64,000 nucleotides of DNA from Acidimicrobiales bacterium (GCA_033344915.1 JAWPML010000001.1:408369-472368); one strand, 5' to 3'. Numbered from the stretch's first letter, positions 61,002 through 64,000 are shown. Numbers and translations: made by a program. The notes: a model not told the origin generated them from the letters alone.

Positions 61002-61553
61002 GTGATGGACGTCCTCGTCGCCCTCCACAGCGCTGCCGCGCTCCTGCTGCTGGTCGCGGGGGTGGCCAAGATCGTGCGGCCCGCGCCGACCGGTGACCTT
61101 CTCGCCACCCTGGGTCTGCCCGGCTCCGACGCCGTCGCGGTCGGCGTCGGTGGGGTGGAGACGGTCGTCGGCGTCGTCGCCCTCGCCGTCGGTGGACCAC
61201 TCACAGCCGCCCTCGTCGGCGCGTTCTACGTCGCGTTCGCCGGGATCGTCGTGCGGGCGATGCGGGCCGGCGCCGCGTCCTGCGGTTGCTTCGGTCGCGT
61301 CGACGCGCCGCCGTCGTGGATCCACGTGATCGGCAATGCCGCCCTCGCCGCGGTCTCGTTCGCCGCCATCGCCGGCGACGCGCCGGTCGAGGTCATGGAG
61401 GACCAACCGGCCGGCGGCGTGGGATTCGTCCTGGTCGTCGGTGTGCTCGCCGGCCTCGCCCTCGTCGCGTTCACCGCCCTCCCCGAGGCGATGGGTGCTC
61501 GGCGGCCCGGTCCGGCCCGTCCGGAGTTCCGCATCGACGGCGACGCGTCATGA
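61002..61553 (+). CDS. MauE/DoxX-like redox-associated membrane protein
   Basis: Four-five TM helices and the CGCFG motif (AASCGCFGRVD). ATGA overlap with the next gene. Confidence 0.7.
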   Translation: MMDVLVALHSAAALLLLVAGVAKIVRPAPTGDLLATLGLPGSDAVAVGVGGVETVVGVVALAVGGPLTAALVGAFYVAFAGIVVRAMRAGAASCGCFGRVDAPPSWIHVIGNAALAAVSFAAIAGDAPVEVMEDQPAGGVGFVLVVGVLAGLALVAFTALPEAMGARRPGPARPEFRIDGDAS

Positions 61554-62713
61554 GCCGCCGTCTGGTCGGTGCCCTCAGCCGCGTCGTCGACGGCCGCTCG
61601 TCGCGACGGGGCTTTCTCTCGAAGTCCGCCCTGGGCGCGACGGCCATGGCGGTGGCGCCGTCCGCCTACGTGTTGCGGCCCACCACGGCGCACGCCGCGA
61701 TCTGCTCGTGCGCGGGCAGCGACTGTGACTGCGGGAGTCGGTGCTGCGATGGCTACACCGACTTCTGCTGCCAGGTCACGGGGGAGAACCTCTGCCCGCC
61801 CGGCACCATCGTCGCCGGCTGGTGGAAGGCCGACGGCAGCGGGTTCTGCGACGTCGACGGCGATCCGCGGCCCCGCTACTACCTGGACTGCAACCTGCCC
61901 TGCGACGACGGCTGTGGATGCTCCGGCTCCGGCGTCTGCGCGTCGGCGTGCACCTCCGCCGACTGCCGTTGCCTCGAGGGCTGCGGCTCCCGGGCCGTCG
62001 AGTGCACCCGATTCCGCTACGGCCAGTGCAACCAGGACGTGGAGTGCGTCGGGCCGATCGCGTGCCGGATCGTCACCTGTGTCGTGCCGTGGCAGTGGGA
62101 TCCGTCCTGTGACGACACGCCGGCCACCGACAACCAGACCGCGTTCCACGACCGTGCCTGTCTGCACGAGGGCTTCACCGACGTCGCGCCGAACAGCTGG
62201 TACACCGAGGCCGTCGGCTGGGCGTCCGAGAACGAGATCACCACCGGCTACAACAACGACATCTTCGGGCCCAACGAGCCGGCGCTGCGGTCCCACCTCG
62301 CCACGTTCCTGTGGCGCTACCAGGGGAACCCGCAGGCGACGTCCGCGCCCTCGTTCGTGGATGTGCCCGCGGACAGCTGGTATGCCGACGCTGTCGCGTG
62401 GATGGCCGAGGAGGAGATCACCACCGGCACCGCGCCGGGCCGCTTCTCGCCGGATCAGGTCGTCACCCGGGCCGAGGCGGTCACGTTCCTGTGGCGCCTC
62501 GCCGGTCGTCCCCATTCGTCGGTCGAGCTCCCGTTCGTCGACGTGCCCGCCAACAGTTTCTACCGGCGGCCGGTGCAGTGGGCGTTCGAGCACGGGCTCA
62601 CCGAGGGCATCAACGGCTGGCTGTTCGGCGGTCTGCTCGATGTCGACCGGGCCCAGGCCGTCACCTTCCTGTACCGCTACGACCAGGCGTTCGGCGTGGT
62701 GGTGCCGACATGA
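61550..62713 (+). CDS. Tat-exported Cys-rich methylamine-dehydrogenase-light-chain-like domain fused to three SLH repeats
   Basis: Twin-arginine signal SRRGFLSKSALGATAMAVAP. By my count, 26 Cys in about 160 aa. The stretch ...CCQVTGENLCPPGTIVAGWW...YYLDC resembles MauA ...CDCSGGSLTNCPPGTKLATASW...YRDCC. Three SLH repeats follow (F.DVP..SWY..AV.W). Confidence 0.7.
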   Translation: MSRRLVGALSRVVDGRSSRRGFLSKSALGATAMAVAPSAYVLRPTTAHAAICSCAGSDCDCGSRCCDGYTDFCCQVTGENLCPPGTIVAGWWKADGSGFCDVDGDPRPRYYLDCNLPCDDGCGCSGSGVCASACTSADCRCLEGCGSRAVECTRFRYGQCNQDVECVGPIACRIVTCVVPWQWDPSCDDTPATDNQTAFHDRACLHEGFTDVAPNSWYTEAVGWASENEITTGYNNDIFGPNEPALRSHLATFLWRYQGNPQATSAPSFVDVPADSWYADAVAWMAEEEITTGTAPGRFSPDQVVTRAEAVTFLWRLAGRPHSSVELPFVDVPANSFYRRPVQWAFEHGLTEGINGWLFGGLLDVDRAQAVTFLYRYDQAFGVVVPT

Positions 62714-63405
62714 TCGTGCTCGTCATCGTGCAGACGATCGCGATCGCCGTGCTGGCCGTGATCGTCTTCGGCCTGCTTCGCACCCACGCCGACATCCTCC
62801 GGGCGCTCGATCGTGCCGGCGTCCCGCTCGAGGACGGCCCGGCGGCGGGCGGCGTCGGCCCGGTCCCGGTCGCGGACCCGCGGGCGAAGCCGACCGTGAG
62901 CGACGTGGTCGGGACGGTCCCCGGCGGCGGACCCGTCTCCGTCTCGGTCGGCGGCGAGGGTCACACGCTGCTCGCCTTTCTGTCGTCCGGCTGCCGGACC
63001 TGTCAGACCTTCTGGTCCGAGTTCACCGCGCCGACGCTGGAGTTGCCGGGCACCGACACCCGGCTCGTGATCGTCGCGCAGGACCCCGCCCACGACAGCG
63101 AGTCGAAGCTCGCCGAACTCGCGCCGGCCGGGGTGCGGACCGTTTGCTCCTCCGCGGCGTGGCACGCCTACGAGGTGCCCGGCTCGCCGTACTTCGTGCT
63201 GGTCGACGGCGACGAGGGCCGCATCGTCGGATCCGGCACGGCGACCGGCTGGCCCCAGGTCCACGCCCTTCTCGAGCAGGCCCTGGGTGACGAGGCCCTC
63301 GACGGATCCGCTGACGCCGCGCTCACGGCATCCGGCATCGGCCCGGGGCACCCGTCGCTGTATCCGGACGAGTCCGGCCCCGCGCTCCCCGAGGACGTCG
63401 ACTGA
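62710..63405 (+). CDS. membrane-anchored thioredoxin-fold thiol:disulfide oxidoreductase (TlpA/ResA/MauD-like)
   Basis: N-terminal TM helix, then the CxxC motif LLAFLSSGCRTCQTFW. ATGA overlap with the upstream gene. Confidence 0.75.
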   Translation: MIVLVIVQTIAIAVLAVIVFGLLRTHADILRALDRAGVPLEDGPAAGGVGPVPVADPRAKPTVSDVVGTVPGGGPVSVSVGGEGHTLLAFLSSGCRTCQTFWSEFTAPTLELPGTDTRLVIVAQDPAHDSESKLAELAPAGVRTVCSSAAWHAYEVPGSPYFVLVDGDEGRIVGSGTATGWPQVHALLEQALGDEALDGSADAALTASGIGPGHPSLYPDESGPALPEDVD

Positions 63406-63470
63406 TGGTTGCCGTGCTCGTGGTCATGGTGGCGGTCACGGCCGCTGTTCGGGCGGCCTGGTCGCCTTGA
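63405..63470 (+). CDS. 21-codon hydrophobic ORF (MVAVLVVMVAVTAAVRAAWSP) ending in TGA, in frame with the next gene
   Basis: Own translation. TGATG overlap with the thioredoxin stop. High GC3. See the finding on the in-frame TGA. Confidence 0.35.
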   Translation: MVAVLVVMVAVTAAVRAAWSP

Positions 63471-63479
63471 GGCACGTCG

Positions 63480-64000
63480 ATGCTGACCAGCATCACTCCG
63501 CTCGGTGAGCGGGGACGGGGAAATCGATGGCGGATCACCGCCGCGTGGTTGGTCGCCGGCCATCTCGTGGGCGGTGCGGCGCTCGGCGGTGTGCTCGCCG
63601 GCCTCGGCGCGCTGGCTGCGCTCGCCGCGCCGGATCTGTTCTCCGGCGGTGGCGACGACACGACCGTCGTCGCGGTCGTCGCCGCGGTCGCCGGTCTGGG
63701 CGTCGCCTTCGACCTGGCCGGAGGGCGCATCCCGGGGCGGCGCCAGGTCGACGAGCGCTGGCTGAACACCTACCGCGGTTGGGTCTACGGCTTCGGCTTC
63801 GGCGTCCAGCTCGGGGTCGGCATGGTCACGGTCGTCAACACGGCCCTGTTCGCGGCCGTGCTCGTCGCCGGCCTGTTGCTGTCGCCGCCAGCGGCCTTCG
63901 GGCTGAGCGTGCTCTACGCCGGCACGCGGGGGATCGCCGCGGTCGCCAGCGGGCGGGTCCGTTCGGTGGCCGACCTCCATCGCCTCCATCAGGCCCTGGA
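63480..64000 (+). CDS. polytopic membrane protein of unknown function (3' end outside window)
   Basis: Own translation: MLTSITPLGERGRGNRWRITAAWLVAGHLVGGAALGG...RQVDERWLNTYRGWVYGFGFGVQLGVGMVT... Strong GC3, open to the window end, not in the ORF track. Confidence 0.65.
   Translation, partial: MLTSITPLGERGRGNRWRITAAWLVAGHLVGGAALGGVLAGLGALAALAAPDLFSGGGDDTTVVAVVAAVAGLGVAFDLAGGRIPGRRQVDERWLNTYRGWVYGFGFGVQLGVGMVTVVNTALFAAVLVAGLLLSPPAAFGLSVLYAGTRGIAAVASGRVRSVADLHRLHQAL

Follow-up and report, generated by a model that had tools for sequence, protein, structure and literature searches.

Does the TGA codon at positions 63468-63470 of the stretch studied here end a gene, or is it decoded? The stretch (the window: 64,000 nt from an Acidimicrobiales bacterium, corresponding to C1:408369-472368 of a genome assembled as a single 4.48-Mb contig, C1) contains near its 3' end a thioredoxin-like open reading frame (ORF) whose stop codon, TGA 63403-63405, is overlapped by the start codon of the next frame, ATG 63405-63407 (TGATG). 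From this ATG, 21 hydrophobic codons (MVAVLVVMVAVTAAVRAAWSP) lead to the TGA in question, which is followed by codons for GTS and then by an ATG at 63480 that opens a second, longer segment (MLTSITPLGER...). The frame exceeds the window, and in the genome its stop lies approximately 85 nt beyond the window's end, near position 64085, giving 226 codons in all. An initial annotation had described both the overlap with the thioredoxin stop and the in-frame position of the TGA, three codons ahead of ATG 63480, and these observations are confirmed by sequence and translation. It had then listed four explanations without choosing between them, i.e., a coupled micro-ORF, readthrough or recoding of the TGA, a recent nonsense mutation, or a sequencing error.

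Here we argue that the region from 63405 to approximately 64085 (plus strand; 63405-64000 within the window) is very probably one gene, in which the in-frame TGA would be recoded to selenocysteine (Sec, U) to give a 226-residue multi-pass membrane protein. We put the probability of this reading at roughly 0.9; the gene is supported by its translation, by homologues aligned across the TGA and by an AlphaFold2 model. Of the four explanations, Sec recoding is strongly supported and the other three are effectively excluded, because the TGA recurs in 62 further, deeply diverged loci with conserved flanks on both sides. The protein is a member of an actinobacterial membrane protein family that is widespread and uncharacterised, the Sec forms of which are present in databases only as truncated hypothetical proteins; it is thus a new protein family inside a well-known recoding mechanism.

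Homologues carry cysteine or TGA at the same codon

A search with the read-through protein retrieved approximately 500 relatives, nearly all of them called as hypothetical proteins of 192-201 residues that start at MLTSITPLGER. A few relatives are longer (267-292 residues) and have an N-terminal helix followed by VRSTWSPCGxSMLSxITPxGER, with cysteine exactly at the position of the TGA; the initial annotation had proposed looking for precisely such a helix and residue in orthologues, and the full-length ones have both. With one of these long relatives as query, more than 1,600 cysteine forms were found, and no Pfam domain is recorded among the matches listed. We also ran a six-frame search that reads through stop codons on 301 genomes of the same class, which located a homologue in 88, with exactly one TGA in 50 of them and none in the other 38. 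The alignments begin at query residues 1-7, so that the putative micro-ORF is part of the alignment in those 88 genomes.

At the codon level, a first set of loci comprises 27 with TGA and 23 with TGC or TGT inside the motif R-x-x-W-S-P-[U/C]-G-x-S-M-L. An independent set, taken from named species representatives and limited to the best 80 of at least 589 loci, contains 36 with TGA and 43 with cysteine. Pooled, 63 TGA loci (the one in the window included) compare with 66 TGC/TGT loci at the identical codon, covering approximately 130 other genomes. Conservation extends to both sides of the codon: the upstream helix and the WSP motif are kept in TGA and cysteine homologues alike, and the methionine from which the protein was formerly thought to start (M26) belongs to the SML motif and is both internal and invariant, in the cysteine forms as well. 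The carriers are mostly metagenome-assembled genomes (MAGs) of Acidimicrobiia, including Candidatus Aldehydirespiratoraceae and Microthrixaceae, and in addition MAGs labelled Thermoleophilia, Solirubrobacterales, Gaiellaceae, Euzebya or Frankiales. One Sec form comes from a MAG labelled Gemmatimonadaceae, on a 3.9-kb contig (CAYVPD010000192.1), and its N-terminal region is near-identical to that of a gene from an Acidimicrobiaceae MAG; misbinning is the probable cause, as opposed to a true occurrence in another phylum.

In a maximum-likelihood tree of 50 sequences, a single change between Sec and cysteine suffices to explain the distribution of the two forms, with a branch support of 100/99. 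Divergence among the Sec forms is deep, their terminal branches measuring 0.03-1.4 substitutions per site (the tree-wide median is 0.43). The TGA has hence been kept for a very long time, and the gene cannot be a pseudogene, nor the TGA a recent nonsense mutation or an error of assembly. The family therefore offers a clean natural Sec/Cys pair, with one switch, two large clades and, in some genomes, the same gene cassette, that can be used to ask what selenium contributes to a membrane thiol relay. There is also a practical consequence. The database copies of the Sec forms that were examined begin at the internal methionine and so lose both the first transmembrane helix and the only reactive residue, and reading the TGA as Sec would correct the annotation in several hundred actinobacterial genomes.

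Two hairpins accompany the TGA form

The nucleotides 3' of the TGA are near-invariant in the Sec loci, with the pattern TGA GGN NNN UCG AUG CUN NNN AGC AUC NNN CCG CUC GGN GAG CGG. The two small hairpins that the initial annotation had placed here are both present, although the first starts 9 nt after the TGA and not 10. Hairpin 1 (63479-63494, plus strand) pairs GAUGCU (63479-63484) with AGCAUC (63489-63494) across a GACC loop. In hairpin 2 (63496-63514, plus strand), CCGCUC (63498-63503) and GAGCGG (63507-63512) enclose a GGU loop, and the stem is extendable to 8 bp over 63496-63514, with a minimum free energy (MFE) of -12.9 kcal/mol.

Both hairpins are confined to the TGA form. The six pairs of hairpin 1 are complete in 27/27 TGA loci of the first set and in 36/36 of the second, compared to a mean of 3.4/6 in the 23 cysteine loci; for hairpin 2, the means are 5.9/6 in the 27 Sec loci and 3.3/6 in the 23 cysteine loci. 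Pairing in the cysteine loci is thus approximately random at both positions, while the 36 further TGA loci agree with the first 27. The mean MFE of hairpin 2 is likewise lower in Sec loci (-10.9 kcal/mol) than in cysteine loci (-4.8 kcal/mol). The serine codon on the 3' arm of hairpin 1 is AGC in all 27 Sec loci and in none of the 23 cysteine loci, which have TCG, ACG, CAG or another codon there. The PLGER residues are kept in the Sec forms and vary in the cysteine forms (PIAEAG, PMAERA and others). A consensus fold computed with RNAalifold recovers both hairpins, with covariation at the pair that closes hairpin 2 (C-G in 13 loci, U-G in 5 and U-A in 5). Finding the same TGA, motif and two hairpins in 62 other loci from different species is far beyond what chance would produce.

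Bacterial selenocysteine insertion sequence (bSECIS) elements are constrained to an apical loop of 3-9 nt with a G at position 1 or 2, a stem of 4 bp or more, a distance of 16-37 nt from the UGA and an MFE of -7.5 kcal/mol or lower (PMC13188914). Hairpin 2 satisfies this model, with a 3-nt loop, a stem of 6-8 bp, a loop 33 nt after the UGA and the MFE given above, and its loop sequence is GGN in 26 of 27 Sec loci and GUG in the remaining one. The loop of hairpin 1, which starts 14 nt after the UGA, is too close for the consensus spacing of 16-37 nt, and its sequence is not conserved; hairpin 1 is probably an accessory or a lower (basal) part of the element. A scan of positions 63300-63700 against Rfam, which is without a suitable bacterial SECIS model, gave a chance microRNA at E = 2 as its sole match. 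Existing bacterial SECIS models miss many elements, and the tandem-hairpin region, conserved as it is at synonymous sites, could serve as training data for them. In the Sec form of a Euzebya sp. MAG, SPVGEY replaces TPLGER, and hairpin 2 has only 3/6 pairs while hairpin 1 has 6/6; this may be a variant SECIS arrangement, with a bearing on which of the hairpins is essential.

The genome maintains selenocysteine decoding

The initial annotation had named a genome without Sec machinery as grounds for rejecting recoding, and we find the opposite, as selA, selB, selC and selD are all present. Aragorn calls a tRNA-Sec with a UCA anticodon at C1:3858800-3858895. The selA and selB genes (385 and 276 bits) are adjacent at C1:3836293-3838474, and selD (360 bits) is located on the minus strand at C1:1225971-1226897; the matches for tRNA-Sec, SelA, SelB and SelD are all above their curated cut-offs. 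The selD gene itself has one in-frame TGA, at the canonical HGAG-TGA-GCK site. Since SelD is itself a Sec form, the organism demonstrably maintains Sec decoding. A comparable two-hairpin region follows the UGA of this selD, the loop of its second hairpin being GUCGU. The machinery also co-occurs with the TGA form across genomes, with selA in 40/42 TGA genomes versus 14/38 cysteine genomes (Fisher p = 1e-8).

Aragorn made a few unusual calls in the same genome. These are a 100-nt tRNA of undefined type (tRNA-???) with a 4-base anticodon (ggtg) at C1:1483668-1483767, and long (90-98 nt) tRNA-Glu, tRNA-Ala and tRNA-Thr at 292390-292481, 2787946-2788035 and 4177862-4177959. False positives are one possible explanation, and tRNAs that are variant or contain an intron another.

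In its design, the gene resembles bacterial selenoprotein genes that have the SECIS inside the ORF, such as fdhF/FdhA and SelD. It shares with them an in-frame UGA aligned with a cysteine of homologues, a stem-loop just 3' whose apical loop begins with G and lies 33 nt from the UGA, a dependence on selA, selB, selC and selD, all of which this genome has, one Sec only, placed in the motif that is most conserved, and a thiol-redox gene neighbourhood. It differs from them in having tandem short hairpins as its SECIS region and not one long stem. The start codon would be ATG 63405, with initiation coupled to translation of the thioredoxin gene 5' of it and with a candidate Shine-Dalgarno-like site (GAGGA, 63391-63395, plus strand) 9 nt before the ATG. 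SelB carrying Sec-tRNA(Sec) would then be recruited to the UGA at 63468-63470 (plus strand) by the stem-loops at 63479-63514, and selenocysteine would be inserted.

Alternative readings of the TGA

The region could instead comprise two genes, a 21-codon micro-ORF ending at TGA 63470 and a 201-residue protein translated from ATG 63480 by coupling or reinitiation. This is how gene callers annotate it in every database entry (192-201 residues, MLTSITPLGER start), and the ATG indeed lies 9 nt after the stop. In the cysteine clade, however, the helix, the WSP-C-G motif and the remainder of the protein form one uninterrupted ORF, in which the supposed start is the invariant methionine of SML. Moreover, a pair of ordinary genes does not account for a TGA form that tracks selA and has hairpins of its own, and no Shine-Dalgarno site is evident ahead of ATG 63480. 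We therefore regard two separate genes as very unlikely.

We judge it just as improbable that the UGA is read by a standard near-cognate tRNA (for Trp, Cys, Arg or Gly) or through context-dependent leakiness. Stem-loops 3' of stop codons can stimulate that kind of readthrough too, but the aligned residue in homologues is always cysteine, the classic counterpart of Sec. In addition, selA is found in 95% of the TGA genomes and 37% of the cysteine genomes, hairpin 2 matches the loop and spacing rules of bSECIS elements, and the genome maintains a full Sec system with a Sec-type SelD. A pseudogene created by a recent TGC or TGG to TGA mutation, or a sequencing or assembly error, is hardly credible. 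The identical TGA occurs at 62 further loci in independently assembled genomes of several families, with other classes among them, the downstream ORF is intact and conserved, and the Sec lineage is ancient.

Some observations do speak against Sec recoding. No selA was detected in 2 of the 42 TGA genomes (G028 and G112), both of which are multi-contig assemblies. The hairpins encode conserved residues (SMLxSI and PLGER), so their conservation could be partly at the protein level, and covariation within them is limited to one pair.

A membrane protein with a single reactive residue

The read-through product has approximately six helices, and its U22, just after the first helix, lies in the most conserved motif of the family, R-x-x-W-S-P-U-G-x-S-M-L-x-S-I-x-P-L-G-E-R. 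Besides U22, the window's protein has no cysteine. Other cysteines are likewise absent from 31/63 Sec forms and 30/66 cysteine forms, and only the U22/C position is conserved. A cysteine within a QxGCG motif was considered as a conserved resolving residue and rejected, as it occurs in only 6/66 cysteine forms.

Profile searches do not connect the family to a known one. The read-through protein has no match in Pfam or NCBIfam 20.0 at E ≤ 1, and five cysteine forms have none above noise at E ≤ 10 in Pfam and NCBIfam. A profile search of a representative library gave 2,707 matches, the best 150 of which are all close family members, without a bridge to a known family, and a tblastn search of plasmids with a cysteine form gave no match. 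From an alignment of 47 sequences, AlphaFold2 produced a confident, all-helical model (predicted local distance difference test score 91.5, predicted template modelling score 0.86). With this model as query, Foldseek found nothing significant in the PDB; the best match has an E value of 0.3, template modelling scores are at most 0.30, and no CcdA is among the matches.

Nor is the family described among known selenoproteins. None of the 119 prokaryotic selenoprotein families and subfamilies in a 2026 review (PMC13188914) has the WSPUG motif or this architecture, and the NCBIfam-backed families of that review are not matched here, since our NCBIfam search would have detected them. The window's protein thus differs from the catalogued families in motif and domain; furthermore, it is an integral membrane protein that lacks both a thioredoxin fold and a UxxC or CxxU partner cysteine. 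No account of the family was retrieved either from the literature on selenoproteins in connection with Acidimicrobiia or MauE, deep-Sep, BSepDB and Actinomarina. It would add to the bacterial selenoproteome a membrane-embedded family without a thioredoxin fold.

The distribution of charged residues suggests a topology. The K+R count is 0 both for the N-terminus and for loop 2, and reaches 3.1 in loop 1, 4.4 in loop 3 and 5.7 in loop 5. According to the positive-inside rule, the N-terminus would be outside and the segment containing U22 at the cytoplasmic face, or re-entrant.

A further likeness is to the transmembrane thiol-disulfide transporters CcdA/DsbD (PF02683 DsbD_TM and PF13386 DsbD_2). 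These too are multi-pass membrane proteins of similar size, with a reactive residue after a proline where the first helix ends or kinks and with a gene that adjoins one for a membrane-anchored thioredoxin. In addition, the CcdA-like proteins encoded in this genome contain FNPCGFAMLP, to which the motif [W/F]-[S/N]-P-[U/C]-G-x-[S/A]-M-L is closely similar. The second essential cysteine of CcdA/DsbD, which have a conserved pair with one member in each pseudo-repeat (transmembrane helices 1 and 4), is however absent from the family. When the genome was searched with PF02683 at E ≤ 10, two other genes matched and the Sec gene did not. Alignment with hhalign gave weak similarity, with a probability of 16% over the 18-column motif and of 4-60% in a permissive full-length mode. 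We did not assign the protein as a CcdA/DsbD homologue: the family profile does not match, the fold search gave no significant similarity, the two-cysteine rule fails, and the hhalign similarity is weak. CcdA is therefore treated as a mechanistic analogy only.

The two CcdA-family proteins of the genome are encoded at C1:3223860-3224399 (plus strand) and C1:4272483-4273055 (minus strand) and score approximately 26 bits on PF02683. Their first motif is FNPCGF(A/S)(M/L)LP and their second SL(G/S)C, and one of them (372 residues) has an extra C-terminal membrane region past the DsbD_TM match. At E ≤ 1e-10, canonical CcdA is found in 0/10 genomes of the window's genus.

The gene lies in a Mau-like cassette

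Upstream of the selenoprotein gene, and translationally coupled to it, is a plus-strand gene for a membrane-anchored thioredoxin-like protein with a CxxC motif (C-R-T-C; 62710-63405). It is MauD-like by its match to TIGR02661 MauD (E = 5.5e-4), which at 19 bits is well below the curated cut-off of 189. Further upstream on the same strand are genes for a Cys-rich protein with a Tat signal and three SLH domains (61550-62713), assigned by its SLH and Tat signal matches, and for a MauE-family membrane protein (61002-61553; PF07291, E = 3.5e-15). The arrangement is reminiscent of the mau cluster (MauE, MauD, MauF), as it is a coupled cassette with a PF07291 MauE-family protein, a MauD-like CxxC thioredoxin and a Tat-exported Cys-rich protein; unlike the mau cluster, it has no methylamine dehydrogenase heavy chain.

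This neighbourhood is conserved. The order MauD-like CxxC thioredoxin, Sec protein and a conserved soluble 150-residue protein is found in all 27 Sec loci, and the Cys-rich gene was detected within the examined sequence in 26 of them. Of the 20 Sec loci fetched with flanks of approximately 4 kb, 16 have MauE inside that distance, and MauE and/or the Cys-rich gene is present in the examined flanks of all but one of the 27. Among 12 cysteine-form loci, 3 are within the same cassette and the other nine are elsewhere. In the cysteine-form cassettes, the thioredoxin gene is directly followed by the 150-residue protein gene, and the cysteine form comes after the Cys-rich gene. The membership of the Sec forms and some of the cysteine forms links the family to the Mau-like cassette. 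The cassette (MauE, MauD-like thioredoxin, 150-residue protein and Cys-rich SLH client) can be flagged as selenium-dependent in approximately half of its carriers.

What the protein does is a more tentative matter. U22 may be a selenol with redox activity, exchanging via a selenenylsulfide with the CxxC motif of the neighbouring MauD-like thioredoxin, so that the protein would serve as a membrane relay for a MauE/MauD-type cassette that matures the Cys-rich SLH protein. We propose this role, which we hold to be possible but somewhat short of an even chance, on the basis of gene adjacency, translational coupling and the single reactive residue; that the Tat-exported Cys-rich SLH protein is the client of the cassette is presumed. 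Several results sit uneasily with it. The family has no conserved second cysteine, and neither a significant fold match nor a profile match points to a function. Moreover, a cytoplasmic U22, as predicted above, would be an awkward fit with an extracytoplasmic disulfide role. More doubtful is the wider idea of an undescribed integral membrane selenoprotein family, with at least 589 species-representative loci, whose one selenol or thiol partners a MauD-type thioredoxin without a resolving cysteine. Such a protein would be a selenium-based counterpart, with one residue, of the two-cysteine CcdA/DsbD electron relay, and would be devoted to the maturation of a Cys-rich protein that is exported by Tat and anchored in the cell wall.

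In the MauD-like thioredoxin, the N-terminus ahead of the transmembrane anchor is uncharged, and Arg/His residues follow the anchor (LLRTHADILRALDR). Applied to this protein, the positive-inside rule would allow a cytoplasmic CxxC domain, located on the side where the U22 loop is also predicted; a MauD or TlpA-type protein would not be expected to have this orientation.

The 150-residue protein (MANALAANGIEVSVRSGWEVEFGEL...) is encoded at approximately 64085-64537 in window numbering. It has no Pfam match, and in 27/27 Sec loci its gene comes after the Sec gene, the two overlapping as TGATG; the protein is likely a dedicated component of the cassette.

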